Below are positions 7,170 through 43,670 of a DNA stretch of 64,000 nucleotides, piece after piece. The stretch's first letter is position 1; every line of letters begins with the position of its first letter. Source of the DNA: Motilibacteraceae bacterium (GTDB lineage Bacteria; Actinomycetota; Actinomycetes; Motilibacterales; Motilibacteraceae); the NCBI GenBank assembly GCA_051954955.1, contig JBQCHF010000072.1:13319-77318 (forward strand). The letters run 5' to 3'. The notes under the pieces were generated by a model. The model ran no database searches, was not told the origin of the DNA, and was given only the letters and a program-made list of their open reading frames with translations. A program made the translations under genes and the position numbers.

Positions 7170-7939
7170 GCGGCCCCCGCCACGCCGGCGGCGCCGTTGG
7201 CGTTCGGGCCGACGATCTCGGTGATCCGGATACCGAAGTCCTCGTCCACCACGACGACCTCGCCGCGGGCGATCAGCGTGCCGTTCACCAGCAGGTCGGC
7301 GGGGCTACCGGCGGCCCGGTCCAGCTCCACCACCGCGCCGGGCGAGAGCGAGAGCAGCTCGCGGACGGTCATCCGGGTGCGGCCGAGCTCGACCGTCACC
7401 TCCATCTCGACGTCGCGCAGCAGCTCCAGGCCGTTGGCCCGCATCTGCGCGGGCACGGTCGGGCCGGCGGCCACCGCGGCCGAGGTCGCCGCGATGACGA
7501 CGGTGGCGACCACCGACGCGTCGTCGGAGACGAGCGGCGCCAGGTGCGCGCCCGGCTCGCCGAGCACGCTCTCCAGGGCCACCTCGAGCGGCAGCTCGGC
7601 GGCGCGCTCCACGCTGGTGCCCAGCGCCGCGGCCGCGGCGTCCAGGGCCGGCTGCACGGCGGCGGCCACGTCCAGCTCGCCCAGCGGGCTGGAGCGCAGC
7701 GCCTCCACCAGGTCGGCAGCGACGACGACCACCAGCTGCCCTTCCACCGGGCTGCCGGGGGCGACCCCGAGCCGGGCGACCACGGCCGCCCCGGGAGTCT
7801 CGGGCAGGGGCACCTCGGCGTCGACGGCCACCGGGGCGACGTCGGCGGCGGTGAGCGCCACCGGCACCGGCAGGGCCGCGGCCAGGGCGGCCACCGCGGG
7901 CCGCAGGTCGGGGACGACGGGCTTGGCGAGCTGGCTCAT
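7166..7939 (-). CDS. fliN: Flagellar motor switch protein FliN, long form with a FliY-like N-terminal extension
   Basis: C-terminal SpoA domain: [73 protein letters not shown]. Start ATG 7939 forms an ATGA overlap with the fliM stop. The rest of track ORF 7166..8920 is out-of-frame read-through. Confidence 0.9.
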
Positions 7940-8931
7940 GACTGGCTCTCTCCCAGGGGTTCGTCGACGACCAGGCAGGCGAGCCGCTTGCCCTTGGCTC
8001 CGGCCACGGCGTGGGCGAAGGTGACGTCGGCCGCGGTGACGGCGAGGGGTGCGGAGACGGGGTGGTCCAGGCCGATGACGTCGCCGACGGCGAGCCCGAC
8101 CAGGGCCTGCGGGGTGAGCGGGGTGGCGCGGAAGCGGACCGCGACGTCCACCGGGACCTCCTGCAGCCGCTCGGCGACCGCGCGCCCGGCGGCGGCGCGG
8201 GCAGCCCGCTCGCGCTCGCTGGTGACGCCGTGGCCGAGGGCGATCTCCAGCAGCGGGAACACGCCGTTGAAGGGCAGGCACACGGTGGCGACGCACTCGT
8301 CGCGGCCCACGTGCAGGTCGAAGCTGGCCACGATGACGACGTCGGCGGCGGAGGCGGCCTGAGCGAACTGTGGGTTGTACTCGATGCTGGTGACCTCGGG
8401 CTGCACCCGGGTGACCGGCTCGAAGGCGTAGCGCAGCTCGCCCAGCACCCGGAGCACCAGGCTCTTGAGCAGCGTCGACTCGATGTCCGAGAGCGGCCGG
8501 GTCGGCTGGTCCGGCGCCCCCGGGCCGCCGAGCATGTGGTCCACGCTCGTCATCGCGCTGGACACCGAGAACTCCAGCACGCCCGCGCCGACGATCGGCT
8601 CGAGGGAGAGGATGTGCATCAGCGTGGGGTTGGACAGCGTGCCGACGTACTCGTCGTAGGTCTGCTGCTCGATACTGACCAGCGACACCTGGGCCAGCGC
8701 GCGCAGGCTCGTCGTGAGCACGGTGGTCCACTGCCGGGCGAACGTCTCGAAGACGATCTGCAGGGCGCGGACATGCTCGCGCGAGAGCTTGGTCGGGCGA
8801 CGGAAGTCGTACGGCTGAGGACCGTTGCCGCGCGAGCGCCGCCCGACGCGATGACGGGAGGCGCGCGCGGACCCGTCCGGGGTGGCGGCAGCGGCCGGCG
8901 CGTCGATGCTCACGACGCACCGGATCGGCAC
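7936..8931 (-). CDS. fliM: Flagellar motor switch protein FliM
   Basis: Sequence: [57 protein letters not shown]... A C-terminal SpoA-like segment is present. The start is uncertain (GTG 8931 or GTG 8913). Confidence 0.9.
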
Positions 8932-8950
8932 TACGGCGGACCGGATGAGG

Positions 8951-8972
8951 AAAAGGGGCGGACCGGGCCGCC
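8951..8972 (-). terminator. Weak GC hairpin plus TTTT in the 108-nt fliL-fliM gap (possible attenuator)
   Basis: Minus-sense sequence is GGCGG-cccggt-CCGCC followed by CCTTTTCC. A T4 run stands out in this GC-rich context. The stem is only 5 bp. Confidence 0.25.
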
Positions 8973-9039
8973 TGCTGGCCCGTCCGTGACGGTGGGTGAC
9001 GGCGGAGGGAGCGAGCCCCCCGCCCCGCTCACCGCAGGG

Positions 9040-9486
9040 TCACTGGGTGACGAACTGGGTGAAGTACACCCCCATCACGTCGCCCTCGTAGGCCTTGTCG
9101 ACCTGCTCGCCGAGCTGCTGCTTGAGCTTCTCCCGTGCCGTGGCGCTGCCCAGCTCAGCCACCTTACGGCCGCTGAACAGGTCGATGGCGAGGTCGAGGG
9201 CATGGCTGCCGTCGGGCGCCTCCTTGGCGGCCTTGGTCGCCTGCAGGGCCAGCCCGAGCTTGAGGTAGTGGCCGTCGGCGAGGTTGAGGGTGATCGGGTC
9301 CAGCGCGATGACCGCGCCGGGCACGGGCTTCGCCGGCCCGGACGGCTTGAGGAAGAAGAAGTAGCCGGCGCCCAGCACCGCGACGAGCAGCACCGCGATG
9401 ACGAGCAGCTTCTTCTTGCCGCCCTTCTTCGTCTCCTCGGCACCCTCCTCGGGGGCTTCGGTCTTCTCCTTGGTGGCAGTGGCCAT
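9040..9486 (-). CDS. fliL: Flagellar basal-body-associated protein FliL
   Basis: Lys-rich N-terminus and a single TM (LLVIAVLLVAVLGAGYFFF). Then ALDPITLNLADGHYLKLGLALQ...VYFTQFVTQ, a typical FliL pattern. Confidence 0.85.
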   Translation of the reverse strand: MATATKEKTEAPEEGAEETKKGGKKKLLVIAVLLVAVLGAGYFFFLKPSGPAKPVPGAVIALDPITLNLADGHYLKLGLALQATKAAKEAPDGSHALDLAIDLFSGRKVAELGSATAREKLKQQLGEQVDKAYEGDVMGVYFTQFVTQ

Positions 9487-9501
9487 GACGACCTCCTCTC
9501 G

Positions 9502-10404
9502 TCAGCCGGCGGCCGACGTCGGCGCGATCTTGGGAAGCAGCGCCCGGTCCTCGGGCGGCAGCGTGGACAGGACGGTGATCTCGACCCGGCGGTTGACCCG
9601 GTTGGCGACCTCGCCAGTGCCGGGGATGAGCGGGCGCTGGTCGGCGTAGCCGGTGGCGGAGAGCCGGTGCGCCGCCACGCCGTCGACGATGAGGGTGCGG
9701 ACCACGGTGACGGCTCGGGCCGAGCTGAGCTCCCACTCGGTGGGGAAGTACTTGGGCTTCACGGGCACCAGGTTGGTGTGGCCGTCGACCGCGATGTCGT
9801 TGGGCAGCTTGGTCAGCACCGGCGAGACCACCGCGAGCACCTTCGCGCCCAGGGGCGAGAGCTCGGCGCGGTCGGCGGCGAACACCACCTCGTCGGTGAT
9901 GACGCTGACCACCAGGCCGCGCTCGTCGTAGCGGTACTCCGCGGTGTCCTTGAGCCCGGCCTTGGCCAGGGCCGCCTGCAGGTCCTTGCGGACCTGCTCG
10001 AGGTTCTTGACCTCCTGCTCGACCCGCTGGCGCTGCGCGTCGGCCTGCGCGCTCTTGTACTGGCTGACCGCCGCCGACTGCTTGGCGTCCCCCTGAGCCG
10101 GGTCCTTCGGCTGGGAGGCGGCGGCGCCGATCTCGAACGCGCCGGGAGCGATGGCGTCGGCGTTGATGGCGCTCTGGCCGCCGTCGTTGACGATGACCGG
10201 GGCGCCAAAGCCCTGGGCCAGGCCGTCCTTGAGCGCCTTGAACTTGTGCTGGTCCACCTGGCTGATCGCGAACAGCACGATGAACAGCACCATGAGCAGG
10301 GTGATCATGTCCGCGTAGGTGACCAGCCAGCGCTCGTGGTTCTCGTGCTCCTCCTCGTGACCCGCGCGCTTCTTGCGCGGGCGGGCGGCCGCGTGCGTGG
10401 CCAT
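9502..10404 (-). CDS. motB: Flagellar stator protein MotB (OmpA-like peptidoglycan-binding C-domain)
   Basis: I start at ATG 10404 (MATHAAARPRKKRAGHEEEHENHERWLVTYADMITLLMVLFIVLFAIS), which includes the conserved plug/TM region with Asp. The C-terminus reads ...VDGHTNLVPV...WELSSARAVTVVRTL...GYADQRPL...NRRVEI. Track ORF codons upstream of 10404 overlap motA out of frame. Confidence 0.9.
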   Translation of the reverse strand: MATHAAARPRKKRAGHEEEHENHERWLVTYADMITLLMVLFIVLFAISQVDQHKFKALKDGLAQGFGAPVIVNDGGQSAINADAIAPGAFEIGAAASQPKDPAQGDAKQSAAVSQYKSAQADAQRQRVEQEVKNLEQVRKDLQAALAKAGLKDTAEYRYDERGLVVSVITDEVVFAADRAELSPLGAKVLAVVSPVLTKLPNDIAVDGHTNLVPVKPKYFPTEWELSSARAVTVVRTLIVDGVAAHRLSATGYADQRPLIPGTGEVANRVNRRVEITVLSTLPPEDRALLPKIAPTSAAG

Positions 10405-10406
10405 GC

Positions 10407-11174
10407 TCAGGCCGCCTTCTTGGCCGGCTCGGCAGGGGGCAGCAGCGACCGGAGCTTCTGCGCCACCAGCCGCGGGTTGCTGCCGGCCTGGATCGCCATG
10501 ATCCCCTCGATGACCAGCTCCATCGAGTGCGACTCGAGCTCGCTGATCCGCGCGATCCGCTTGCCCAGCGGGAGCCACATGATGTTGGCGGTCATGACGC
10601 CCCACAGGGTGGCGACGAAGGCGCCGGCGATGAGGTGGCCGAGCTTGTCCGGCTCGCTGAGGTTCTCCAGCACGTGGACCAGGCCGAGGACGGTGCCGAT
10701 GATGCCGATCGTGGGGGCGTAACCACCCATGTCGGCGAAGAACTTGGACGCGTTCTTGTCCACGCCCTTCTTCGCGCTCAGCTCGGCCTCGAGGATCTCG
10801 CGCAGCTCCTCGGGGTCGGTGCCGTCGATGGCCAGCTCGAGGCCGCGCTTGAGGAACGGGTCGGTCACGTCGCGGGCGGCGTCCTCCAGGGCCAGCAGGC
10901 CCTCACGGCGGGCGCGCTCGGCGAGGGAGACCACGGTGGCGACGATCTCGTCCGGCGGGGCCGGCTTGGCCATGACGAAGCGCTGCAGGCCCTTGAGGGT
11001 GCCCAGCGTGTCGGGCAGCGTGCTGCCGGCCATGGCGGCGCCGAAGGTGCCGAGGAAGACCAGGACGATCGGCGGGATCAGGATGATGCCCATCGGGTTG
11101 CCGCCCTCGAGGATCATCGACCCGAAGATCCCCGCGAAGGCCATGCCGATGCCGGCGAGCGTTGCCGGATCCAC
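10407..11174 (-). CDS. motA: Flagellar stator protein MotA
   Basis: Sequence: MDPATLAGIGMAFAGIFGSMILEGGNPMGIIL... and ...GGYAPTIGIIGTVLGLVHVLENL...GAFVATLWGVMTANIMWLPL. This matches the MotA/TolQ/ExbB family. Confidence 0.95.
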   Translation of the reverse strand: MDPATLAGIGMAFAGIFGSMILEGGNPMGIILIPPIVLVFLGTFGAAMAGSTLPDTLGTLKGLQRFVMAKPAPPDEIVATVVSLAERARREGLLALEDAARDVTDPFLKRGLELAIDGTDPEELREILEAELSAKKGVDKNASKFFADMGGYAPTIGIIGTVLGLVHVLENLSEPDKLGHLIAGAFVATLWGVMTANIMWLPLGKRIARISELESHSMELVIEGIMAIQAGSNPRLVAQKLRSLLPPAEPAKKAA

Positions 11175-11177
11175 GGT

Positions 11178-11477
11178 TCAGCCCTCCCAGCGGTGGTGCA
11201 ACGGCACCACGGTCGCGGCACTGTCCGGGGGTGGCGCTGCCGCGAGGTGCGGCGGCGGGGTCTCACCCGCCAGCTCCCGCTCGAGCAGGTAAGAGCGAGC
11301 CACGACCGAGGCGCGGAAGTCGCGCACCCGCTCCATGATCTCCTCGACCGGCTCCTGCACGACGTACTTGGTGCCGTCGACGAGCGTGACCACGGTGTCG
11401 GGGGTGCTCTCAGCGCGCTCCACCAGGTCCGGGTTCACGGCGAAAGCCGCCCCGTTCAGGCGCGTCAGAAGAATCAC
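11178..11477 (-). CDS. flbD: Flagellar protein FlbD
   Basis: GTG 11477 gives VILLTRLNGAAFAVNPDLVERAESTPDTVVTLVDGTKYVVQEPVEEIMERVRDF, a close match to the FlbD family pattern (MI.LTRLNG..F.LN.DLIE.IE.TPDTVITL..G.KY.V.ES.EEV). Position upstream of motA, as in spirochaetes and Firmicutes. The upstream part of track ORF 11178..11696 is an artefact of the palindrome. Confidence 0.8.
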   Translation of the reverse strand: MILLTRLNGAAFAVNPDLVERAESTPDTVVTLVDGTKYVVQEPVEEIMERVRDFRASVVARSYLLERELAGETPPPHLAAAPPPDSAATVVPLHHRWEG

Positions 11478-11640
11478 GTCAATCCGTCCCTGGATCGATT
11501 CGTCGAGGCCGATCCGTCGGCCCTGTACACCGACGATCGGTAGGAGGAGGCCCTGACTGAGCAACTGGGGCCGGTCCCGGCCCCTCGTCACCCGTTCGGG
11601 TGTGCAGGCCGCGTCGCCGCGACGTCGATGCGGCGGAATT

Positions 11641-23917: not shown

Positions 23918-24316
23918 TCAGGCTCCCGACCCCTCGGCGGCGACCTGCCGAGCTGCCTCATGCCAAGCGTCACGCAGAGGCTCGACAAGGGCACGGCAGG
24001 CCGACGTCGCGGCAAGGTCGTTCTGCACGTTCGCGCGGATCAGCTCGGTGTGGAGGAAAGTGTAGATCGATGCGAGCGCGGGCCCGCCCTCCCAAAGCTC
24101 GGGTCGGAGCCCGTCCTGCAGCGCGATGACGATGTCCTGCGCGTGGACCAGCTGATCGTTGGCCTTCTCCCGATCCCCTGCCTGCTGTGCCAGCTCGGCG
24201 CGCTCGAGGTCGAGCACGAGGCGGTCGTAGAGCATGGTCAGCAGCTTGGCAGGGGAAGCCGTTGTCACGCCGGAGCTGACGTATCGAGCTCGTAGGGCTG
24301 TCCCGTTCACGGTCAC
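23918..24316 (-). CDS. fliS: Flagellin-specific export chaperone FliS
   Basis: Sequence: ASPAKLLTMLYDRLVLDLERAE...KANDQLVHAQDIVIALQDGL...GGPALASIYTFLHTELIRANVQND. Confidence 0.9.
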   Translation of the reverse strand: MTVNGTALRARYVSSGVTTASPAKLLTMLYDRLVLDLERAELAQQAGDREKANDQLVHAQDIVIALQDGLRPELWEGGPALASIYTFLHTELIRANVQNDLAATSACRALVEPLRDAWHEAARQVAAEGSGA

Positions 24317-24334: not shown

Positions 24335-25654
24335 TCAGCCCGTAGGTAGGGACGCGATCTGGCCGGCCAGCCAGTTGCCCTGGTCCTTGAGCTTGCCGAG
24401 GGCGACCTCGAGATTGCTGAACTGCAGCTGGAGCGCCTGCTGACGCTGGGTCAGCCGCACGTCCCAGTTCGAGATCTGGTCGTTGAGGTCGCGGATATCG
24501 GAATTTCGGCCGTTGATGGCCGTCGTGATGGAACCGGTCACCGAGTCAGTGGCCTTCGTCGCGATGCTCGTGAAGGACGTTGCGAGCGACTGCACGGTCG
24601 ACTGAGCCTTCGCCGGATCGGTGGCGTAGAGGTCGAGGAACTTCTGCCGGTCGAAGGTGACGTTCCCGTCCCGGTCGACTGAGAGACCGGCCAGGGAGGA
24701 GCCACCGGCGCTCGACGTCCCGGGGGCGCCCGCGATGGACTGTGCGATGAGCCGGACGCCGAGATCACCGTTGAGCGGCGCCCCGCTCTTGGTCGCGCTG
24801 TTCCAAGCGGTCTGGTTGGTGATCTCCTTGGTTGCCGCGTTCGCGGCGGTGACCATCGCCTGGACCTTGTCCGCGAGGGCACCTGGGTCGGTCGCGACGG
24901 TGACCGTGCTCGTCACCCCCGCCGCACCGACAGTGAAGCTCGTGCCCTGCAGGACGTCGGAGAAGGTGTTGGTGGACGAGGTCACCTGGTAGCCAACGGC
25001 TCCGGTGCCGGTCCCGCCGATGCTCAGGACGGCGTCGCTGCCGCCCACAGCGCGCTGGTAGGAGCCGAGCGCACCGAGGGAGAGGGCGGAACCGCCGGTG
25101 AAATCGCTCGCCGCCCCTGTGCTGCCCGCGGTCAACGACAGGTGGTAAAGACCGTCGCTCGTCTTGACTGCGGAGGCACGCACAGAAAGCCCGGCGTTGT
25201 TGATGGAGGAAACCACGTCGTTCAGGGAGGAACCCGTCACGGTCACGGTGCCCGGGCTCGCCCCAGCGAAGGTGATGGTGTCTCCGGCATTCCATACGGC
25301 AGCTGTCGGGTCGGCGACGCCTCCAGTGCTGATCCCGCTCTCCGCAGCGGCCACCGCATCGACGTGGAACGTGAGGGACCCCGGGGTCGCGGACGACGTC
25401 GACGCCACCGTGACGGAGCTGTCGCTGCTGGTGCCCTTGGCCGCGACGAAGCCGCCGACGGCCGTGAGGGCCTCCGCCGCAGTCTGCAGCGCCGAGAGCC
25501 GGCTGTTCACCGACTGGTAGCTCGACACCGCCTGCTGAGCCGCCGAGACCTTGGCCTTCAGCGCTGTCTGCGGGGCCGCTTCCACCTGCATGAGCTGGGA
25601 GATCAGCTGCGAGGTGTTGAGGCCGGAGACGAGCCCGTCGACGCTCGTGCTCAT
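24335..25654 (-). CDS. fliD: Flagellar filament cap protein FliD
   Basis: N-terminus VDGLVSGLNTSQLISQLMQVEAAPQTALKAKVSAAQQAVSSYQSVNSRLSAL. C-terminus ...ISNWDVRLTQRQQALQLQFSNLEVALGKLKDQGNWL. Confidence 0.9.
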   Translation of the reverse strand: MSTSVDGLVSGLNTSQLISQLMQVEAAPQTALKAKVSAAQQAVSSYQSVNSRLSALQTAAEALTAVGGFVAAKGTSSDSSVTVASTSSATPGSLTFHVDAVAAAESGISTGGVADPTAAVWNAGDTITFAGASPGTVTVTGSSLNDVVSSINNAGLSVRASAVKTSDGLYHLSLTAGSTGAASDFTGGSALSLGALGSYQRAVGGSDAVLSIGGTGTGAVGYQVTSSTNTFSDVLQGTSFTVGAAGVTSTVTVATDPGALADKVQAMVTAANAATKEITNQTAWNSATKSGAPLNGDLGVRLIAQSIAGAPGTSSAGGSSLAGLSVDRDGNVTFDRQKFLDLYATDPAKAQSTVQSLATSFTSIATKATDSVTGSITTAINGRNSDIRDLNDQISNWDVRLTQRQQALQLQFSNLEVALGKLKDQGNWLAGQIASLPTG

Positions 25655-26007
25655 GAACGCTGTTCTCCTCGCTCGAGCCCAAGGCGCGTGCGCGCCAGGC
25701 TCGCCTCGATCGCTCGAACCACCTGCTCTGGCGGAAGCTGGAGCAGCGTCTGCCCGGTCTCGGGATCTAGCACCGAGGTGACGGGGAGACCGTCCCGCTG
25801 CTCGATCCGCACCGCCATGCTCGGCCGTACGGCAGCCTCCAGCCGCACGCGAATCGCGGCTCGCTGGTGCTGCTCGACCGGCACGTCTCTCCCGTCGGCG
25901 GCCGGCCGCTCGACCTGAGGAACGGGGGGGCGCGGGAACGTGGGTCGTGCGGCTGCGCGCGCATTCTCGATCGGTTGTGACACGGATGGAACCTGCACGT
26001 GCGACAC
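25651..26007 (-). CDS. flaG: FlaG-family flagellar protein
   Basis: The C-terminal half, VRIEQRDGLPVTSVLDPETGQTLLQLPPEQVVRAIE, matches the FlaG pattern (...D.etgEvirQiPpEe.l). GTG 25998 is the more likely start, because GAAGGAGG sits about 9 nt upstream. Confidence 0.7.
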   Translation of the reverse strand: MSHVQVPSVSQPIENARAAARPTFPRPPVPQVERPAADGRDVPVEQHQRAAIRVRLEAAVRPSMAVRIEQRDGLPVTSVLDPETGQTLLQLPPEQVVRAIEASLARTRLGLERGEQRS

Positions 26008-26023
26008 CTCCTTCGACGCGTGC

Positions 26024-26053
26024 GGGGCGGCCGGCTGGTGCCGACCGCCCCGA
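26024..26053 (-). terminator. Hairpin 20 nt downstream of the fliC stop (flagellin terminator/attenuator)
   Basis: Plus-strand sequence: CGGGGCGGCCGG-ctggtg-CCGACCGCCCCG. This is a 12-position stem. Its one C.A position becomes a G.U wobble in minus-sense RNA. No U-tract follows, and the flaG SD follows immediately. Confidence 0.55.
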
Positions 26054-26073
26054 CGTGCGCCCTACGGCGTGGC

Positions 26074-26958
26074 CTAGCGGAGCAGGGACAGCACGCCCTG
26101 CGGCGCCTGGTTCGCCTGCGCGAGCATGGCCGTGCCGGCCTGCGACAGGATCTGCGACCTGGTGAAGCTCACCATCTCCGACGCCATGTCGGTGTCACGG
26201 ATCCGGCTCTCCGACGCCGACAGGTTCTCGACGGCGACGTTGAGGTTGTTGATCGTGTGCTCGAACCGGTTCTGCGAGGCACCGAGCTTCGCACGGACGG
26301 TGGAGACGTCCTTGATGGCCTCGTCGATCTGGGTGATCGCAGACTGAGCACCCGTCGTAGAGGTCAGGGCCAGGCCCGACGTCTTCAGGCCCGCCGAGTC
26401 GAAGCCCGAGATCGCAGTGGCACCAGTGGCGGCGGTGAAGCCAGTGATCATGCCGCTGGCACCACTCGTGACGTCGATCGTGATCTGGTCGTTCGTGGTG
26501 TTGTTGGCGCCGACCTGGAAGGTGCCCTTGTAGTTGCCGTCCAGCAGCTTGGTGCCGCCGAACGCCGTGGTCTTGGCGATGCGGTCGAGCTCCTTGTTCA
26601 GCTCCTGGAACTCGGTGTCCGCGGCGGCCTGGGCGGTGGAGTCCTGCGAGCCGGAGTTCGCCGCCTGCACGGACAGGTCGCGCATGCGCTGGAGGATGCT
26701 GGTGGTCTCGTTGAGCGCACCTTCAGCGGTCTGAGCGACCGAGATGCCGTCCTGGGCGTTGCGGACGGCGACCTTGAGGCCACCGATCTGCGAGCGCAGA
26801 CCCTCGGACACCGAGAGGCCGGCCGCGTCGTCGGCGGCACGGTTGATGCGGAAGCCGCTGGACAGCTTCTCCAGGGACTTCTCCATCTGGCCCTGCGTCA
26901 CCGACAGGTTCCGGTAGGCGTTGAAGGCCGCGATGTTCTGGTTGATGCGGAGACCCAT
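26074..26958 (-). CDS. fliC: Flagellin
   Basis: N-terminus [59 protein letters not shown]-terminus ...[35 protein letters not shown]. The variable domain is short and Ser/Thr/Gly-rich. 294 aa. Confidence 0.97.
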
Positions 26959-26963
26959 GATGA

Positions 26964-27007
26964 TCCTCCTTGAATCGGGTCCGTTGCTCCCGGGCCGTCC
27001 GTGGCCC
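26964..27007 (-). promoter_or_regulatory. fliC 5' leader with three GGA motifs; candidate CsrA binding sites
   Basis: Minus-sense leader: GGGCC-ACGGAC-GGCCC (5-bp stem with GGA in a hexaloop, 27007..26992). Then CGGG-AGCAACGGA-CCCG (second ACGGAC, 26984..26979). Then CAAGGAGGA, the SD at 26970..26964, 5 nt before the ATG. Confidence 0.45.
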
Positions 27008-27018
27008 GTTCGCTCTGA

Positions 27019-27045
27019 CAGTCGGCGCCTGGTCCAGGCGCCTGA
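27019..27045 (-). promoter_or_regulatory. Candidate sigma-28 (FliA)-type promoter of fliC
   Basis: Minus-strand sequence is TCAG-gcgcctggaccaggc-GCCGACTG, 61 nt upstream of the fliC ATG and 11 nt after the fliA stop. The spacer consists of a 9-bp perfect inverted repeat (27024..27042). Confidence 0.5.
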
Positions 27046-27055
27046 GGGGGAAGCT

Positions 27056-27955
27056 CTACGCCGAGCGGGTGATCGTCGCGAGGGCGACGCTGCCCATGTC
27101 GACCGGGCGGGCCGACAGGCGGGTGCGGAAGTCGCTGTGCGAGGCGACGGCGGCGAAGTAGGCCTCGCGCCGGCGGGTGGCGCAGCCGTCGGGGCGACCG
27201 ACCGGCTGGACCAGCTCGGGCTCCAGCGCGGAGTTCATGCCGTCGCGCAGCAGGCTCAGGGCCTCGGCCCGCATCTGGGAGACGCGGGACTCGGTGACGC
27301 CGAGCTCGACCGCGATCTCCGCCATCGGCCGCTCCTCGAAGAAGTAGCGGACGACGACGGTGCGCAGGCGCTCAGGCAGCACCGCGATGGCGTCGTGCAG
27401 GTAGCCGATCTTCTCGTTGAGCAGCAGGCGCTCGTCCGGGCTCTCGTCGCCGACCGGAGCGACCTCGTCCAGCGCGGAGGGGTCGGCGAAGCCCTGCAGG
27501 CTCAGCACGACGGCGCGCTGCACGTCCTCCTCCACCGACTCCACCTCGCCGACGGCGACGCCCAGGTGGGCGGCGATCTCCTCGGCGGTGGGGGTGCGGC
27601 CCAGGACACCGGCCAGCGCCTCGATGGCGGCGTCGCGGCGGCGGGCCTTGGAGCGGACCGAGCGACTGGCCCAGTCGTGGCTGCGCAGCTCGTCGATGAG
27701 GGCGCCGCGGATGCGGGTGCTGGCGAACCGACCGAACGGCACCCCGCGCTCGGGGTCGAAGCCGCGGGCGGCCTGGGCCAGGGCGGCGAGGCCGGCCGAC
27801 ATCAGCTCGTCGCGGCTCACGTGGGCCGGGACGCGGCCGATCATCTCGGAGACGAGGTAGCCGACCAGCGGCAGGTTCGTCGTCACGAGCTCCTCCTCGA
27901 CGCCCCGGTCGACGGGGCGGCGGGGGGCCGGGATGGGCATCGGCGTCACGGTCAT
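27056..27955 (-). CDS. fliA: Flagellar alternative sigma factor, FliA/WhiG (sigma-28) family, with a C-terminal extension of about 55 aa
   Basis: Region 2: [12 protein letters not shown]...[43 protein letters not shown]. Region 3: EEIAAHLGV. Region 4: [49 protein letters not shown] further 55 aa of unrecognised sequence follow. Confidence 0.9.
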
Positions 27956-28133
27956 GGGGATCCCCTCGGCCGATTGGTGGCCTCGAGTTGAGCCCCCGGA
28001 GTGAAAACGGCTAGGGGTGGCTAGTCCCCTCGGTCCCGATGGCCCGGGCCCTCTGGGTCCAAAGACCTAGACGACCGGTGCACGCGGACAGGTCGGTGCC
28101 CGATTGCGACATGAATCGGTGGCACGAGACGGC

Positions 28134-28160
28134 TCAGAAGCCAGCCGCTCCAGCCGACAG
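28134..28160 (+). promoter_or_regulatory. Candidate sigma-28 (FliA)-type promoter of the flgN-flgK-flgL-fliW operon
   Basis: Plus-strand sequence is TCAG-aagccagccgctcca-GCCGACAG, 75 nt upstream of the flgN ATG. Confidence 0.5.
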
Positions 28161-28234
28161 GTGGTCAGACAGCAGCTCGGTGGGACCGCAGGCAGCGGCA
28201 GCTCACCCGGAAGCGGAAGAGAGGTGCACGACCC

Positions 28235-28717
28235 ATGGGACTGGCTGAGGTGTCGAGCGTCCTCTGGCGTGAGCGGGAGCTGCTCGAGCTGCTCCTGTTC
28301 AAGCTCGAGGAGGAGCAGCTCGTCCTGACGTCGGGGCGCACCCGCTGGCTGGCGCGCGCCACCAAGGAGGTCGAGGTCGTCCTGGAGGAGATCCGCCGCG
28401 CCGAAGTGCTGCGGGCCGCCGAGGTCGACGCCCTGGGCGTCGCGCTCGGCCTCGGAGCCTCCCCGAGCCTCTCCAGGCTCGCTGACTCCGTGGACGAGCC
28501 CTGGTCGTCGATGCTCCAGCAGCACCGGCAGGCCTTCCTCACCATGACCGCCGAGATCACGGCGCTGGCCGAGTCGAACCGCGACCTGCTCACCGCCGGC
28601 GCCCGCGCCACCCGCGAAGCGCTGCTCTCGCTCACCGACGGCGCCGAGACGTACACGCCGGGCGGCGCGACGGTCAGCGTCGGCTCGCGCCACCGGCTGC
28701 TGGACCAGGCCCTGTGA
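28235..28717 (+). CDS. flgN: FlgN-family flagellar export chaperone
   Basis: Sequence LAEVSSVLWRERELLELLLFKLEEEQLVLTSGRTRWLARATKEVEVVLEEIRRAEVLRA... is helical. Position immediately upstream of flgK-flgL. Confidence 0.7.
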   Translation: MGLAEVSSVLWRERELLELLLFKLEEEQLVLTSGRTRWLARATKEVEVVLEEIRRAEVLRAAEVDALGVALGLGASPSLSRLADSVDEPWSSMLQQHRQAFLTMTAEITALAESNRDLLTAGARATREALLSLTDGAETYTPGGATVSVGSRHRLLDQAL

Positions 28718-28724
28718 GCCGCGC

Positions 28725-30125
28725 GTGAGCACCTTCTCCGGGCTGTCCACCGCCCTCTCCGCTCTGTACGCCCAGCGCCGCGGCCTGGACGTGACCGGCC
28801 AGAACATCGCCAACGCCAACACCGAGGGCTACTCCCGCCAGCGGGTGGACCTGCAGTCCGTCGGCGCACCGGTCACCCCGGCCATCTGGTCGGTCTACAG
28901 CGGCGCTGGCCAGGGCGTCGATGTCAGCGGGGTCCAGCGCCTGCGGGACGCCTTCCTGGAGCTGCGCGGCCAGACCGAGCACGGACGACTCTCCTACTTC
29001 CAGGGCGTGGACGCCGTCTACGGCCAGATCGAGCAGTCACTGGGCGAGCCCAGCGACACCGGCATCCAGTCCCAGCTGTCCGACTTCTGGGCCGGCTGGC
29101 ACGACGTGGCGAACGCCCCTGGCGACCCTGCAGCCCGCAGCCAGCTTCTTCAGCGCGCCCAGACCCTGACCGACGGCCTGAACAAGGCGGCTGACTCGCT
29201 CTCCACCCAGTGGGGGCAGCTGCGCGAGCAGCTCGGGACGACCCTCAGCGACGTCAACAGCGTGGCGGCGAACGTCGCTGACCTGAACCAGGCCATCCTC
29301 CGGGCCGACCAGGCCGGCCTGCCGGACAGCGAGCTGAAGGACCAGCGGGACGGCCTGGTGATGAAGCTGGCCGACGCCGTCGGCGGCCGAGTGGTCTACG
29401 GGGACAACGGTGTCGCCGATGTGTACCTCGGTGGGACCGCGCTGGTCCGCGGCTCGACCTCGCTGAAGCTGCAGGTCTCCGGCGCCTCCGACCTCCAGTC
29501 GCAGTCGACAGACCCCGTCCGCATCACGTGGGCCAAGGACGGATCCCCTGCCGACGTGACGACCGGCTCGGCCGCTGCGCTGGCCCAGGGCCTGACGACC
29601 ACGGTCCCGAGCACCCTCGCCTCGCTGGACTCCGTCGCCGCCGCGGTGGTCACCCGCGTGAATGCGCTCCACACCGGCGGATTCGACCTTGCCGGGAACC
29701 CGGGCGCTGATTTCTTCGACCCGGCAGGAACGACCGCGGCCGGCATCCGGCTCAACCCTGCGCTCACGGACCACCCCGAGCTGGTGGCGGCCTCCGGGAC
29801 CGCCGGCGCCACCCTCGACGCCAGCCAGGCCGACGCGTTGGCGCGCCTCGGCACTGACCCGACCGGTCCGGACTCGACCTACCGCCAGGTCATCGTCGAC
29901 CTCGGGGTGCAGGCGCAGACGGCCACGCGCCGGGCTGCGATCCAGTCCGACGTCACCAGCCAGGTCGACGCCGCGCGCGACGCGCAGTCCGGCGTCAACT
30001 TGGACGAAGAGATGATCAATATGGTGCAGTACCAGCACGCCTACGAGGGGGCGGCGCGCCTCATGACGGCGGTCGACCAGACCCTCGACACGCTCATCCA
30101 CAACACCGGACTCGTGGGGCGGTGA
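28725..30125 (+). CDS. flgK: Hook-associated protein 1 FlgK
   Basis: N-terminus STFSGLSTALSALYAQRRGLDVTGQNIANANTEGYSRQRV. C-terminus VNLDEEMINMVQYQHAYEGAARLMTAVDQTLDTLI. Confidence 0.95.
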   Translation: MSTFSGLSTALSALYAQRRGLDVTGQNIANANTEGYSRQRVDLQSVGAPVTPAIWSVYSGAGQGVDVSGVQRLRDAFLELRGQTEHGRLSYFQGVDAVYGQIEQSLGEPSDTGIQSQLSDFWAGWHDVANAPGDPAARSQLLQRAQTLTDGLNKAADSLSTQWGQLREQLGTTLSDVNSVAANVADLNQAILRADQAGLPDSELKDQRDGLVMKLADAVGGRVVYGDNGVADVYLGGTALVRGSTSLKLQVSGASDLQSQSTDPVRITWAKDGSPADVTTGSAAALAQGLTTTVPSTLASLDSVAAAVVTRVNALHTGGFDLAGNPGADFFDPAGTTAAGIRLNPALTDHPELVAASGTAGATLDASQADALARLGTDPTGPDSTYRQVIVDLGVQAQTATRRAAIQSDVTSQVDAARDAQSGVNLDEEMINMVQYQHAYEGAARLMTAVDQTLDTLIHNTGLVGR

Positions 30126-30129
30126 CCGC

Positions 30130-31017
30130 GTGACGACGTTTCGGATCACTCAGCGCTCGGTGGGCGAGCGGACCCTCGCCGGGCTTCAGACGAACCTCGC
30201 GCGGATGGGCAAGCTCCAGGAGCAGCTCTCCAGCGGCAAACTGATCTCCAAGCCGTCGGACGATCCCACGGGAACGGTGTCGGCGCTGCAGATCCGCTCG
30301 CAGGTCCGCACCCAGCAGCAGTGGTCGCGCAACGCCTCCGACGGCGTGGGTTGGCTCAACACCACCGACACGACGCTCACCGGGATGCTCGGCGAGGTCC
30401 GGCGCGTCCGCGAGCTCGCCCTCCAGGGCGCCAACAGCGGCGCCGCCGGCCAGGACGCCCGCGAGGCGATGGCAGCCGAGGTGGACAAGATCAAGGAGTC
30501 GTTGATCAGCGACGCGAACACGCGGTACCTGGACCGTCCCATCTTCGGCGGGACGACCGGGGGTACCGCTGCGTACGCCTCCGACGGGACCTTCCTCGGG
30601 CAAACCGCAGGCGTCTACCGCACGGCGGGAGACGGCGCCCCGGTGCGGATCGACGTCACCGGCCCCGAGGTGTTCGGCAGCGGCGCGAGTTCTCTGTTCG
30701 CCGTCGTCCAGCAGGTGTCCGACGACCTCCGCAACAACCCAGCCAGCCTCAGCAACGACCTGGGGGCGATCGACGGCGCCATGAAGAACCTCACGAACAG
30801 GCTCTCCGACGTCGGAGCGCGGTCGAACCGGCTGGACACCATGCGCCAGGCCGCCGAAGACGCTGCGGGGAGCCTCACGAACCACCTCGCCGACGTCGAG
30901 TCGATCGACCTTCCGGCCACCGTCGTACAACTTCAGCTGCAGCAGACGGCGTACCAGGCTGCGCTGGGCGCAACCAGCCGGGTCGTGACGCCGTCCCTGA
31001 TCGACTTCCTCAGGTGA
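30130..31017 (+). CDS. flgL: Hook-associated protein 3 FlgL
   Basis: Flagellin-like termini: RITQRSVGERTLAGLQTNLARMGKLQEQLSSGKLISKPSDDP... and ...DLPATVVQLQLQQTAYQAALGATSRVVTPSLIDFLR. Confidence 0.9.
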   Translation: MTTFRITQRSVGERTLAGLQTNLARMGKLQEQLSSGKLISKPSDDPTGTVSALQIRSQVRTQQQWSRNASDGVGWLNTTDTTLTGMLGEVRRVRELALQGANSGAAGQDAREAMAAEVDKIKESLISDANTRYLDRPIFGGTTGGTAAYASDGTFLGQTAGVYRTAGDGAPVRIDVTGPEVFGSGASSLFAVVQQVSDDLRNNPASLSNDLGAIDGAMKNLTNRLSDVGARSNRLDTMRQAAEDAAGSLTNHLADVESIDLPATVVQLQLQQTAYQAALGATSRVVTPSLIDFLR

Positions 31018-31046
31018 CCCTGCACATGTGCCCCGGCGCACCCGAG

Positions 31047-31457
31047 ATGGTGAAGGATGGGCGCGTGACGAAGGAGCAGGACCTACCAGTCATCGACCTC
31101 GTGTCTCCCATCGCCGGCTTCCCCGAGCACCGGCGGTTCGTGCTGGTACAGCTGGACGATGCGGGTCTCCTGTCGGCCCTCCGGTCCGTCGACGACCCGG
31201 ACCTGCGCTTCCTGGTCGTCCCTCCGGCGCCGTTCTTCCCCGGGTACGAGCCAGAGATCGACGACGAGTGGGCCGAGCGCCTACAGCTGCGCCGCCAGGA
31301 CGAGGCGCTCGTGCTGATCATCGTCACCCCCGGCCCCACCGCCGCGGACTCCACCGCCAACCTCTTGGCCCCGGTCGTCGTGAACACCCGGACCCGGGTC
31401 GCGGCGCAGGTGCTGCTCGAGGGCAACCTTCCCCTGAAGGCCCCCCTCGCCGCGTGA
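31047..31457 (+). CDS. fliW: Flagellar assembly factor FliW (flagellin-binding CsrA antagonist)
   Basis: Sequence: IDLVSPIAGFPEHRRFVLVQLDDAGLLSALRSVDDPDLRFLVVPPAPFFPGYEPEIDDEWAERLQL...LVLIIVTPG...TANLLAPVVVNTRTRVAAQVLL. This fits the FliW family pattern. The start is ATG 31047, or GTG 31065 with GAAGGA upstream. The rest of track ORF 30321..31457 is out-of-frame over flgL. Confidence 0.8.
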   Translation: MVKDGRVTKEQDLPVIDLVSPIAGFPEHRRFVLVQLDDAGLLSALRSVDDPDLRFLVVPPAPFFPGYEPEIDDEWAERLQLRRQDEALVLIIVTPGPTAADSTANLLAPVVVNTRTRVAAQVLLEGNLPLKAPLAA

Positions 31458-31567
31458 AGGCGCGGCCCTCGATCCGGCCGATGAGAACGCCACGCGAGGC
31501 ATGCTTCGCGAATAGGCTGGGCGGAACGCCCGGTGGACATGGGCGCACCCATGGAAGGGGCCCGCCA

Positions 31568-31849
31568 GTGCTCGTCCTCAGTCGCCGCGCCGGCGAGAGC
31601 ATCGTGGTCGGCGACGACGTCGTCGTTACCGTGCTCGAGGTGAGGAGCGACGTCGTCCGGATCGGCATCGACGCCCCCCGCTCCGTTCGTGTGCACCGCG
31701 AAGAGGTCTACCGGGAGCTGCAGGCCGCGAACCAGGCCGCGGCGAGCAGCGTCGGACCGTCCGACGAGGCGCTCGTCCAGGCTATCCACTCGCTGCTGCC
31801 CCCGACGGCCCGGGTATCGGAGCCCCCCCTCCCTCCCGCCGCCGACTGA
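31568..31849 (+). CDS. csrA: Carbon storage regulator CsrA (RNA-binding translational repressor), long C-terminal tail
   Basis: GTG 31568 is preceded by GGAAGGGG. Sequence VLVLSRRAGESIVVGDDVVVTVLEVRSDVVRIGIDAPRSVRVHREEVYRELQAAN compares well with E. coli [55 protein letters not shown]. A Pro-rich tail of about 38 aa follows. Hidden inside track ORF 31028..31849. Confidence 0.85.
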   Translation: MLVLSRRAGESIVVGDDVVVTVLEVRSDVVRIGIDAPRSVRVHREEVYRELQAANQAAASSVGPSDEALVQAIHSLLPPTARVSEPPLPPAAD

Positions 31850-31913
31850 CCGCCCCGAAGGCTCGCCACCGCCCGGCTGCTGCCGATAGGTCGTGCGAGG
31901 TCTGGGAGGTCAC

Positions 31914-34073
31914 ATGGTCCATCAACCCGTCACGGTCGCCGTGCAGGTCGGCAACGATCCGGCCGCGACCCGCTCGATGCTCGACGCGGTCCTCGGACAG
32001 CTCGGCGTGCGTGACGAGCTCATCCTGCTGTGCCCGCAGAACGAGCGCACGACGCCCTGGCGGTCGAGCAGGGCACGGATCGTCGTCTTCGACGGGTCCG
32101 GCCCCGACGCGGCGACCCGGGCAGCGCTGGAGGCGGCACAGCACGACCGCGTGCTGGTCACCTGCGACGACGTGATCTTCAGCCACCGCCTGGTGGAGCG
32201 ACTCGCTCACGCCCTCGACAGCGACCCTGCCCTGGTGGCCGTCGGCCCGCTGGCGCCACACGTCAACGGCATCCAGCGGGTGGACCTGCCCGACGACGTC
32301 GCCGGCGACCTGCGCGCCCTGCGCCGCTGGATGAGCGAGGTGGGGCGCGGCGCAGGCGACTCGGTTCTGCCGGCGCGCCGGCTGGATCCCGTGTGCCTGC
32401 TCCTGCGTCGCGAGGGTGCGTCCCTCACGGCCCCCGGCCTCGGCCCGGTTGGGTCCCTGGCGGTCGTGCCCGGGGCGGTAGTCGCACATTTGGAGTCCGA
32501 GGGCTGCGCACGCGCCCTGGCCGCTGACGACCCCCTGCTCAGCCTCTGCATGATCGTCAAGGACGAGGAGGCGAGCATCCTCGACACCATCGAGAGCGCG
32601 CGGCGCATCGTCGACGAGGTCATCGTGTACGACACAGGCTCTCGGGACCGCACCAGGGACCTGGCGCGGGAGGCGGGAGCCCACGTCGTGGAGGGGTTCT
32701 GGAACAACCACTTCGCCGAGGCGCGGAATCGGGCCGCGGAGCACGTCCGCACCCCGTGGATGCTGGTCCTGGACGCGGACGAGACCCTCACCGTCGACAA
32801 CCCTGCCGCCCTTCGAGCCTTCCTGCGCAGGACGACGTGCGACGCTCTCCTCGTGGGCGTCCGCAACACCCACGACCTGGGTGGGGTGAGCCTCGAGAAC
32901 TGGAGCGTCCGGGTGATGCGCCCGATGGCGGCGCGGTACGTCAACCCCCTGCACGAGCAGGTCGTCCACTCCATGACCGGCGAACAGATCGATCTACTGC
33001 AGACACGTTATGACGACCTTCGCGTCGAGCACGTCGGCTACCGGCGCCAGCGGATGGAGGATCGGGACAAGACCCGGCGCAACTACGAGATCGCGATCAG
33101 CGGGCTCGCAGCGGCGAGAACGTCCGGGTCCGTCGGCGTGCTGATGGATGCCCTGGTCAACGCCGGCCGCTCCGCGACCGGCACTGAGCAGCTGTGCCGG
33201 GAGGCGCTCACCTTCCTCGAAGAGGCGTGGAAGCACTTCACCGAGACGAATCAGTACAGCGGCACGGCCTCTCTCGGGGCCTACACCGCCGCCATGCATT
33301 CCATCGTTCTGGGCGAGATGGAGGCCGCCGCCACGTGGCGGGACCGGTTCCGCAGAGCCTCGGGGAACGAGTCCGAGGCCGTCGTCATCGATGCCAACAT
33401 CGCCGCCCGCTCGGGAGAGACACAGCGAGCCATCGAGCTGCTCGAGAGCCTGCCGGAGACCTACCTGGGCAGCATGGGTCGGCTCACCCCCCGGGCCCAT
33501 CTCCTTCCCACGGTGCTCGGCTGGCGGCTCTCATGCGGCCTGCCCACCGAGGTCACGGTCCGAGAGATGGTGCGAGGCGACGTCCCGCTGGTCGACCTCG
33601 ACCTGCTCTTGTCAGCGTTCGACGGCAGCAGTTCCGCCCTGGCGGAGGTGCTCACGTCCACACCTGCTCCGACCCTGCTCCGCTCGGTCTGCGGACAGGC
33701 GATCAGCCACCCTCAGGGGGGCGAGCTCCTCCGCAGCCTGCACGAGGCCGCACCCACCGAGCTTGCGCCCGTCGCGGCAGCCGCGAACCTTCCAGCGAAC
33801 GACCTCTCCCTCGAGGCCGCCGTCTACTGGTCCCTGGCCCTGCGGGCGGTCGGCCACGCCGAAGAGTGCCCGCTGCGCAAGATCCGGGACGGAGACCAGC
33901 CGTCGCGAGCAGCGGTCGCCTGCGCCGTCCTCGCCGACGCCTGCTCGGACGAGGAGTCCTGGAAGCTTCTCCCGGAGAAGCTGGGAGATGTTCCGAGCGA
34001 GGACGAGCACGAGGTCGTCGGGCTCCTCCAGACTTTCGCACCGCGAGTGGCGGACGCCGTGGTCTCCGCCTGA
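31914..34073 (+). CDS. Large glycosyltransferase with two tandem GT2 (GT-A) domains and a C-terminal helical domain; candidate flagellin glycosyltransferase
   Basis: ATG 31914 is preceded by GGGAGG; the track start GTG 31893 is also possible. Domain 1: VTVAVQVGNDP...VLVTCDDVIF. Domain 2: LSLCMIVKDEEASILDTIESARRIVDEVIVYDTGSRDRTRDLAREAGAHVVEGFWNNHFAEARNRAAEH...WMLVLDADETL. Domain 2 is clearly paralogous to the GT at 22484..23596. About 330 aa of helical sequence follow. Confidence 0.75.
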   Translation: MVHQPVTVAVQVGNDPAATRSMLDAVLGQLGVRDELILLCPQNERTTPWRSSRARIVVFDGSGPDAATRAALEAAQHDRVLVTCDDVIFSHRLVERLAHALDSDPALVAVGPLAPHVNGIQRVDLPDDVAGDLRALRRWMSEVGRGAGDSVLPARRLDPVCLLLRREGASLTAPGLGPVGSLAVVPGAVVAHLESEGCARALAADDPLLSLCMIVKDEEASILDTIESARRIVDEVIVYDTGSRDRTRDLAREAGAHVVEGFWNNHFAEARNRAAEHVRTPWMLVLDADETLTVDNPAALRAFLRRTTCDALLVGVRNTHDLGGVSLENWSVRVMRPMAARYVNPLHEQVVHSMTGEQIDLLQTRYDDLRVEHVGYRRQRMEDRDKTRRNYEIAISGLAAARTSGSVGVLMDALVNAGRSATGTEQLCREALTFLEEAWKHFTETNQYSGTASLGAYTAAMHSIVLGEMEAAATWRDRFRRASGNESEAVVIDANIAARSGETQRAIELLESLPETYLGSMGRLTPRAHLLPTVLGWRLSCGLPTEVTVREMVRGDVPLVDLDLLLSAFDGSSSALAEVLTSTPAPTLLRSVCGQAISHPQGGELLRSLHEAAPTELAPVAAAANLPANDLSLEAAVYWSLALRAVGHAEECPLRKIRDGDQPSRAAVACAVLADACSDEESWKLLPEKLGDVPSEDEHEVVGLLQTFAPRVADAVVSA

Positions 34074-43167: not shown

Positions 43168-43222
43168 GTCGCACCCTCCCTGGCGCTCCGCGCGGCACTA
43201 CCTCAGGTCCGCTGCGACCGCA

Positions 43223-43249
43223 ACATCGACGCACTGCGAGAGCACTTGA
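43223..43249 (-). promoter_or_regulatory. Weaker sigma-28-like box upstream of cheA
   Basis: Minus-strand sequence is TCAA-gtgctctcgcagtgc-GTCGATGT, about 55 nt upstream of the cheA ATG. The spacing is correct and the CGAT core is present, but the -10 deviates (GTCGA rather than GCCGA). Confidence 0.3.
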
Positions 43250-43343
43250 GCGGCCGAAGGTCCCTGGTCATGTCTGCGTCGCAGGAGTTGGGGGGTGCTC
43301 CTGGGACAGGCCGGGCGCTCTGCCCGGGAGGGCCGCAAACACG

Positions 43344-43463: not shown

Positions 43464-43670
43464 TCAGCCGGCGTCGCGCTGCTGCGGGATCCCCGCGAGC
43501 AGGGCGCGGACCTCGGTCTCGCGGTAGCGGCGGTGGCCGCCCAGTGTCCGGATCGAGGTCAGCTTGCCGGCCTTGGCCCAGCGCGTGACGGTCTTGGGGT
43601 CTACCCGGAACATCGAGGCGACCTCAGCCGGCGTGAGCAGCGGCTCGGTGTCAGGGGTGCGCGAGCTCAT
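43464..43670 (-). CDS. bldC: BldC, small MerR-like/excisionase-type DNA-binding developmental regulator
   Basis: 68 aa: MSSRTPDTEPLLTPAEVASMFRVDPKTVTRWAKAGKLTSIRTLGGHRRYRETEVRALLAGIPQQRDAG. By my recollection this is nearly identical to Streptomyces BldC. It is the only real part of track ORF 43464..44927. Confidence 0.9.
   Translation of the reverse strand: MSSRTPDTEPLLTPAEVASMFRVDPKTVTRWAKAGKLTSIRTLGGHRRYRETEVRALLAGIPQQRDAG

Follow-up and report, generated by a model that had tools for sequence, protein, structure and literature searches.

A candidate FliW-CsrA-flagellin partner switch and a conserved two-element flagellin leader in an actinobacterial flagellar locus

The Hag-FliW-CsrA system of Bacillus subtilis (Yakhnin 2007; Mukherjee 2011, 2016; Altegoer 2016; Oshiro and Kearns 2019, 2020) and that of Campylobacter jejuni are the closest described counterparts of the locus reported here, a flagellar gene cluster on a 64,000-nucleotide stretch of DNA from a Motilibacteraceae bacterium of the Actinomycetota (contig JBQCHF010000072.1, positions 13,319 to 77,318; hereafter the window). 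The established target of CsrA in B. subtilis is the flagellin transcript hag, whose leader carries an upstream GGA hairpin and a Shine-Dalgarno (SD) site, BS1 and BS2, respectively. In C. jejuni, the 45-nt leader of flaA forms two stem-loops with ANGGA loops, SL1 and SL2, the latter lying over the ribosome-binding site, and compensatory changes support this structure (Dugar 2016, PMC4894983); CsrA of this species also binds several flagellar mRNAs beyond flagellin, i.e., flaG, flaB and flgI (PMC4894983). The FliW-CsrA-flagellin loop is considered the original form of CsrA control, and the CsrA-FliW pair is counted among the ancestral components of the flagellar system. Among Actinobacteria, the co-occurrence of CsrA and FliW is on record (PMC4682653). 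For Kineococcus radiotolerans, it was proposed in silico that CsrA represses flagellin translation via a BS2-like SD site, in which 9 of 12 bases match hag BS2; the same paper places csrA within the flagellar clusters of Nocardioides, Acidothermus and Leifsonia (Bagwell 2008, PMC2587704). We consider it about 80% probable that the locus in the window is a FliW-CsrA-flagellin partner-switch module as in B. subtilis and C. jejuni. This reading is supported, at the level of sequence and covariation, by the identities of the genes, the contact residues of the two proteins, the promoter pattern, two helices in the leader of the flagellin gene fliC (P1 and P2), a loop matching the CsrA consensus, and a parallel design in the flbD leader.

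The locus shares four properties with that of B. subtilis: (i) fliW and csrA adjoin each other as the last genes of a late flagellar operon with flgK and flgL, (ii) the flagellin promoter is of the sigma-28 type, (iii) an upstream GGA hairpin is combined with a GGA-bearing SD in the flagellin leader, both being predicted CsrA sites in the window, and (iv) CsrA has N55 and a C-terminal extension, with the partner glutamine in FliW. A preliminary description of the window, made from its letters and open reading frames (ORFs), had already placed fliW and csrA at the end of the flgN-flgK-flgL operon and likened the locus to hag; Pfam matches and gene order confirm the former (the gap between fliW and csrA is 110 nt), and the latter is consistent with CsrA N55 and its extension, FliW Q121, the adjacency of the two genes, the promoter and the predicted two-GGA leader. 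Unlike B. subtilis, the window lacks the bridge between FliW K123 and CsrA D41, its CsrA has an extra Pro-rich end, and the signature of the fliC leader is also found on the flbD-motAB transcript. In addition, P2 ties the start codon and codon 2 to the leader; we found no such helix described for hag. As in C. jejuni flaA, the leader is short (~55 nt), is predicted to contain two elements with the second one over the ribosome-binding site, and is backed by compensatory changes; C. jejuni flaA is the closest described analogue of the two-element leader with P2. Nevertheless, in the window the coding region supplies the closing strand of the second helix, the extra candidate target is the stator/switch operon, and the phylum and base composition differ.

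The leader was delimited from the promoter. We sought CTCA-N16-17-GCCGA up to 200 nt upstream of start codons, which is the WhiG1/FliA-type consensus according to RNA-seq of Actinoplanes missouriensis (PMC12871210). Four genes in the window, fliC, flgN, flbD and cheA, are preceded by patterns of this type (Table 1; transcription starts predicted), as are 56 of 67 related fliC and 52 of 78 related flgN upstream regions. The same survey found this element upstream of flagellin and flbD, which are the commonest predicted WhiG1 targets in it; it deals with transcription only, without CsrA or FliW (PMC12871210). Transcription of fliC, whose ATG is at 26958 on the minus strand, is predicted to start near 27013, so that the leader would be ~55 nt long, close to the 61 nt given in the preliminary description. 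We also considered the palindrome GGCGCC-TGGACCA-GGCGCC (27041-27022) as a third CsrA hairpin and rejected it, as it fills the spacer between CTCA and GCCGAC; lying upstream of the predicted transcription start, it is probably absent from the fliC mRNA.

P1 presents GGA in a hexaloop, as the preliminary description had stated, albeit on a stem of 6 bp instead of 5 bp, and is predicted to be a high-affinity CsrA site analogous to BS1 or SL1. The window is enriched in hairpins with a C-ANGGAN-G loop: we counted three with stems of 6 bp or more, where 200 dinucleotide shuffles predict 0.43, and eight with stems of 4 bp or more, where shuffles give 2.9±1.6. We retrieved 80 actinobacterial loci by FliW alignment, including those of Nocardioidaceae, Kineococcus, Actinokineospora and Sporichthyaceae. 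The 68 fliC leaders extracted from them follow one common plan, and 66 distinct leaders were aligned by MAFFT. From this alignment, RNAalifold predicted P1 unprompted as a 5-bp stem with a hexaloop; in the leader of the window, minimum free energy (MFE) folding gave both P1 and P2. In the 66 leaders, 89.7% of the P1 cells are paired (73.6±1.1% in shuffles), two-sided changes occur at six of the seven pairs, and compensatory cells number 68 (20 in shuffles). The covariation score was 0.321, compared with at most 0.067 when the partners were slid, and the observed values were reached by none of 500 shuffles. A gap-free 22-nt alignment of P1 raised the score to 0.463 (at most 0.117 in the control).

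The pattern of these substitutions bears on the possibility that the inverted repeat of P1 acts not as RNA but as a DNA operator, to which a dimeric transcription factor binds downstream of the promoter. An inverted repeat near +5 to +25 of a regulated promoter would suit such a role. Nevertheless, the half-sites are unconserved and change compensatorily, pair 29-44 being GC in 27, AU in 25 and UG in four leaders and another pair being CG in 36, UA in nine and GC in six; G-U is tolerated. The stem varies from 5 to 7 bp, whereas the closing C-G and the loop A-N-GGA-N are invariant. As the invariant part is the asymmetric loop, RNA pairing fits these data, and protein recognition of a DNA palindrome does not; we regard the operator as very improbable.

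C-A-N-GGA-N-G is reportedly the core of the high-affinity site of CsrA/RsmE, and an A-N-GGA-N loop closed by C-G is said to be the pattern these proteins recognise; the consensus from systematic evolution of ligands by exponential enrichment is reportedly RUACARGGAUGU, and that from RsmE-hcnA A/U-CANGGANG-U/A. What is invariant in P1 is exactly this hexaloop with its C-G closure, and the same pattern appears in the SD of flbD (see below). This consensus derives from gammaproteobacterial proteins and may differ from the specificity of the CsrA in the window.

P1 with a stem of at least 4 bp was detected in 57 of 67 fliC leaders. None of the 78 flgN leaders has it, although the promoter pattern is found in 52 of them, and no hairpin of this type was found upstream of flgK, flgL, fliW, the sigma factor gene, fliD or fliS in the fliW-anchored loci. 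The background rate was 0.0058 per 100 nt over 3.4 Mb of locus sequence. Being absent from flgN leaders with the same promoter as well as from the upstream regions of the other genes, P1 is not general to WhiG1 transcripts. Rfam searches with E values up to 10 gave no match on the fliC leader and none reaching the gathering score within 26000-32500.

Between P1 and the SD, the leader alignment contains a nearly invariant GACYC, which no GGA model explains. The preliminary description had noticed a second ACGGAC here and placed it in a weaker hairpin. The sequence is indeed present (26984-26979), but it does not present GGA in a loop; it forms part of the 5' strand of P2, pairing with the start region. 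Since GGA occurs at this position in only about one third of the leaders (by eye), we rejected it as a conserved GGA site. P2 was tested on alignment A5, extended to +12, with columns 54-59 and 86-91 as its strands. At the pair of columns 58 and 87, i.e., base 4 of GACYC and base 1 of codon 2, we found C-G 32 times, U-A 31 times, U-G once and one unpaired case: GACCC goes with AUG-GGU (Gly) in 32 sequences and GACUC with AUG-AGU (Ser) in 31. The helix has 5 bp and is 89.7% paired across the alignment, and both the start codon and the SD fall within its loop of ~26 nt. When the leader of the window is folded by MFE, this loop contains an upper stem, GAUUC/GGAUC, with AAGGA of the SD shown as a pentaloop. 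With a neighbour-joining tree built from FlgL, FliW and the sigma factor, Fitch parsimony required nine state changes, of which about seven are switches between C-G and U-A, so that the covariation of P2 does not go back to one inherited event. Together, these results support P1 and P2 as RNA helices that are probably under selection.

The fliC SD, AAGGAGGA, was correctly reported to contain GGA, and is predicted to be the second CsrA site, like BS2 or SL2. The GGA-bearing SD lies 26 to 33 nt downstream of the GGA loop of P1 in the fliC leader, and 65 of the 68 leaders contain A-N-GGA no more than 25 nt from the start.

The main rival of the partner-switch reading takes P1 and P2 as cis elements independent of CsrA: P1 would be a 5'-proximal stabiliser against RNases that depend on the 5' end, P2 would be a brake on initiation or an mRNA signal coupling flagellin translation to the export gate, and CsrA would have its targets elsewhere or none in the flagellin mRNA. 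P1 is indeed only ~5-10 nt from the predicted 5' end, and P2, which pairs the start codon, would lower initiation without any protein. Nevertheless, a stabiliser needs no fixed loop, yet A-N-GGA-N and its closing C-G stay invariant while the stem varies; flgN and cheA leaders with the same type of promoter lack the hairpin; and fliW and csrA have stayed beside the flagellin locus in all 80 genomes examined. We therefore judge this rival unlikely.

The partner-switch reading also draws on the two proteins. In CsrA of the window, the match to PF02599 spans residues 1-52 and includes MLVLSRR and VHREE (residues 42-46). The conservation of this core relative to Escherichia coli CsrA, claimed in the preliminary description, is borne out by the Pfam match (Table 1) and by the alignment to 1Y00 (E=1.4e-16). 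The protein aligns with solved CsrA structures over residues 1-57, and with the FliW-bound CsrA of Geobacillus (5DMB chain D) up to residue 64. N55 is present, and is at least 90% conserved in 60+ actinobacterial CsrAs, which are typically 77-85 aa long and share the extension N(R/Q)AAAS-PS(D/E)DAV-ASLA. What had been described as a Pro-rich tail of ~38 aa is a tail of ~40 aa that is Pro-rich only in its last ~18 residues; residues 53-80 make up the conserved FliW-binding extension, which aligns with the tail of B. subtilis CsrA, and ~12 extra residues form a variable, lineage-specific Pro-rich appendage, longer in some relatives. With N55 and the C-terminal extension, this CsrA fits the FliW-regulated subclass by its sequence. 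FliW in turn aligns with 5DMB_A (E=2e-20), TANL..AP..Q being among the aligned residues. Its Q121, N105, A108 and F55, which are invariant among 29 relatives, correspond to Q124, N108, A111 and F58 of B. subtilis FliW, the cluster contacting CsrA N55; N55 and Q124 are an invariant contact pair in B. subtilis. B. subtilis P26 is replaced by A23 in the window, whereas the relatives mostly have Pro.

The contact residues are not all of the kind known from B. subtilis, and the loop could be vestigial or rewired, with FliW acting as a flagellin chaperone only and CsrA regulating generally, outside the control of FliW. In the window, K123 and D41 are replaced by FliW A120 and CsrA R41, so that the bridge of Bacillales is missing. 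Furthermore, many Nocardioidaceae csrA genes have their own -10-like box before the ATG and sometimes lie on the opposite strand, so that csrA is uncoupled from fliW transcription in them. On the other hand, the couple of N55 and Gln as well as the CsrA extension are conserved across the group. The K123/D41 bridge is needed for allosteric inhibition in B. subtilis, yet it is conserved in Bacillales only, and FliW antagonism works in Campylobacter and Helicobacter. Because of this restriction, the bridge does not define the wider family, and we did not accept its absence as evidence against membership. A vestigial loop seems to us quite improbable, somewhat more so than the cis elements discussed above.

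The scan of the whole window for C-ANGGAN-G hairpins also brought up the leader of flbD, the first gene of an operon with motA, motB, fliL and fliM. Two hairpins are predicted in this leader, the loop of the second being the SD itself (Table 1). We retrieved 80 metagenomic flbD loci, yielding 68 distinct leaders, which visibly carry the WhiG1-type promoter pattern, followed by a hairpin with a GGA loop (often GGGCC-ACGGAC-GGCCC) and an unusual SD, C-A-R-GGA-Y-GGA (CA[AG]GGA[CT]GGA). In 58 of the 68 leaders, CANGGANG precedes the start by 10-14 nt, and CANGGANGGA is found in 52. When a covariance model trained on fliC P1 alone (R1) was run on these independent loci with E values up to 10, 64 of 81 matches fell within the flbD leaders, although these 100-nt stretches account for just 1.5% of the search space. 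The flbD-motA-motB-fliL-fliM transcript is probably a second direct CsrA target; we found no paper linking CsrA to flbD.

Other R1 matches were given no such meaning. Those in coding sequence, e.g., in fliL of locus L102, where GCCAAGGACGGC encodes AKDG, were rejected as chance. Weak matches were also seen within the flgD coding region of the window (13146-13166, minus; GGCCACGGACGGCU) and, at a similar distance of ~1.56 kb upstream of flbD, in L094, L114, L126 and L100; these recurrent matches probably reflect conservation of a peptide and not of an RNA element. At the fliG/fliH junction (18691-18712, plus), a perfect 8-bp hairpin, TCCAGGCC-ACGGAT-GGCCTGGA, has an R1 score of 25.5 bits. We rejected it as a GGA site since it is antisense to fliG/fliH, which are on the minus strand, and the loop in their mRNA reads AUCCGU, not GGA.

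The partner-switch reading can be laid out as follows. A WhiG1/FliA-type sigma factor would transcribe fliC from CTCA-N16-GCCGAC, giving the ~55-nt leader, and the covariation suggests that this leader folds into P1 with its A-N-GGA-N hexaloop and into P2, whose loop takes in the start codon and the SD. As in the known systems, one dimer of CsrA would, by analogy, span the 26 to 33 nt between the P1 loop and the GGA of the SD, and block 30S binding. FliW, co-transcribed with csrA from the flgN operon, would then bind CsrA via N55/Q121 and the C-terminal extension, as the contact residues suggest, and free the mRNA. Again by analogy, unexported flagellin in the cytoplasm would capture FliW and thereby free CsrA, so that, in this proposal, flagellin translation would track flagellin export.

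Several points weigh against this reading. All its mechanistic steps are inferred from sequence and from other phyla. The fold z-scores of single leaders are modest (-1.8 for fliC and -1.4 for flbD). The second CsrA site, in the SD, carries little independent weight for fliC, because GGA is nearly unavoidable in an SD (AGGAGG). The K123/D41 salt bridge is absent. Finally, the metagenomic flbD leaders may include some from organisms without csrA; Actinoplanes, Actinosynnema, Kineococcus and Geodermatophilus are recorded as positive for both CsrA and FliW (PMC4682653).

If the fliC and flbD leaders are taken together, FliW-CsrA of flagellated Actinobacteria may gate two late transcripts that depend on WhiG1, flagellin and flbD-motA-motB-fliL-fliM, by a shared operator, composed of a GGA hexaloop and a GGA-bearing SD, so that synthesis of the stator and switch would be licensed by flagellin export. 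P2 would then present the SD to CsrA and serve as an intrinsic brake, and csrA would be autoregulated via CANGGANG in the clade of the window. We put this joint reading forward tentatively, giving it a real but somewhat less than even prospect.

The last component concerns the csrA leader, in which CATGGAAG, a match to C-A-N-GGA-N-G, overlies the SD within a weak CCC/GGG hairpin. This site is shared with L006, L033, L013, L074 and L051 only, which suggests, as far as these leaders go, a clade-specific autoregulation of CsrA. In most Nocardioidaceae (L003, L004, L010-L012, L014, L017 and others), csrA has a -10-like box (TAGCGT, TAGGTT or TACCGT) 6-8 nt before its ATG and no SD, suggesting a leaderless mRNA with its own promoter. 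csrA lies on the opposite strand, 0.3-3 kb from fliW, in L004, L005, L008, L011, L018, L019, L022 and others.

Two more leaders with the promoter were considered as targets. The SD of cheA in the window (gene 43167-40642, leader 43171-43250, minus) is presented by the hairpin GCGCC-AGGGAG-GGUGC as its loop. This hairpin is missing from nine other cheA leaders, which have the promoter and a strong GGAGG SD only; we thus rejected cheA as a conserved CsrA target, and its hairpin is at most a weak, lineage-specific lead. The flgN leader was also rejected, as its promoter is conserved yet a hairpin with CANGGANG occurs in none of the 78 leaders.

The window has a G+C content of ~72%, and the flagellar and chemotaxis cluster spans positions 1 to ~44000 (Table 1). 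The nearest named homologues of FliW and FlbD come from a Motilibacteraceae metagenome-assembled genome, with 84% and 91% identity, respectively. Most of the 80 loci retrieved with FliW have the gene order of the window, csrA being inverted or 0.3-3 kb away in some, and the synteny of the sigma factor gene with fliC is kept in L001-L080. The sigma factor is presumed to be of the FliA/WhiG1 type. For fliW, GTG at 31065 is a more likely start than 31047, because it is preceded by a GAAGGA SD and the database copy has 130 aa.

Table 1. Positions of the genes and predicted regulatory elements discussed in the text (window coordinates)
Feature	Position	Strand	Basis
flbD operon genes: motA; motB; fliL; fliM (operon 7936..11477, headed by flbD)	11174-10407; 10404-9502; 9486-9040; 8931-7936	minus	Pfam
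flbD, PF06289, start GTG 11477	11477-11178	minus	Pfam
flbD hairpin 2, UCGAUC-C AGGGAC G-GAUUGA; loop = SD, 9 nt before GTG 11477	11479..11498	minus	hairpin scan, fold
flbD hairpin 1, GGCCG-ACGGAU-CGGCC, or 6 bp with CGGA tetraloop	11507..11522	minus	fold; R1 match 11504-11525
flbD promoter, WhiG1-type, CTCA-N17-aCCGAT	11536..11561	minus	pattern scan
fliS	23918-24316	minus	Pfam
fliD	24335-25654	minus	Pfam
fliC, flagellin, 294 aa	26074..26958	minus	PF00669 E=1.4e-44, PF00700 E=2.3e-31
P2 3' strand, G of AUG and GGUCU (codons 2-3)	26951..26956	minus	MFE fold, alignment
fliC SD AAGGAGGA, in loop closed by P2	26964..26971	minus	leader sequence, MFE fold
P2 5' strand, GGACCC (core GACYC), part of second ACGGAC	26977..26982	minus	MFE fold, alignment
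P1: stem CGGGCC 27008-27003, loop ACGGAC 27002-26997, stem GGCCCG 26996-26991; GGA 27000-26998	26991..27008	minus	MFE fold, covariation
fliC promoter, WhiG1/FliA-type: CTCA (27046-27043), N16, GCCGAC (27026-27021)	27021..27046	minus	pattern scan
Sigma-70-family sigma factor (regions 2, 3, 4), directly upstream of fliC	27056..27955	minus	Pfam
flgN-flgK-flgL-fliW(-csrA) promoter, WhiG1-type, CTCA-N16-GCCGAC	28133..28158	plus	pattern scan
flgN	28235-28717	plus	Pfam
flgK	28725-30125	plus	Pfam
flgL	30130-31017	plus	Pfam
fliW	31047..31457	plus	PF02623 E=2.9e-32
CATGGAAG over csrA SD	31550..31557	plus	sequence comparison
csrA, 93 aa	31568..31849	plus	PF02599 E=9.3e-25
Large glycosyltransferase-family protein	31893-34073	plus	Pfam
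cheA promoter, CTCA-N16-gTCGAT	43250-43225	minus	pattern scan

Some further features of the cluster may be recorded here. Between the fliC stop and a 118-aa ORF (26007-25651, minus), the inverted repeat GGGGCGG...CCGCCCC (26008-26073, minus), which is rich in G+C and has no U tract, is likely the terminator or attenuator of fliC; the ORF has no Pfam match and occupies the position of flaG. Between csrA and a 720-aa protein (31914-34073), CTCG-N16-GCCGAT, resembling the WhiG1 pattern with one mismatch in the -35 element, was found within 31862-31916 (plus). This protein carries GT2 and NTP-transferase domains, and may modify flagellin and be expressed together with the late genes. A 68-aa protein of the HTH_17/MerR type (MSSRTPDTEPLLTPAEVASMFRVDPKTVTRWAKAGKLTSIRTLGGHRRYRE...) is encoded at 43464-43670 (minus), directly upstream of the che cluster, and presumably resembles the actinobacterial developmental regulator BldC.

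The preliminary description held the loop to be essentially uncharacterised in high-GC Actinobacteria. We likewise found no experiment on the FliW-CsrA-flagellin loop in Actinobacteria in the literature; nevertheless, the co-occurrence of CsrA and FliW (PMC4682653) and the BS2-like proposal of 2008 (PMC2587704) are on record, and the module therefore belongs to a known kind. The 2008 paper makes no mention of FliW, nor, in the part cited, of an upstream hairpin, covariation, P2 or a site in flbD. The covariation-supported P1, the extension of P2 into codon 2 and the matching signature of flbD-motAB are, in the literature we searched, what we did not find described.

The two-site leader, here with covariation, is found in a third major lineage, and the circuit seems to be of equal age in its RNA and its protein part. 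P1 and P2 of the fliC leader form a compact, conserved RNA motif outside Rfam, which could serve to annotate flagellin leaders. If the prediction for the stator/switch operon fails, the locus would be an ordinary member of a known system. If this operon is truly a second direct target, the checkpoint would widen from filament homeostasis to motor assembly.

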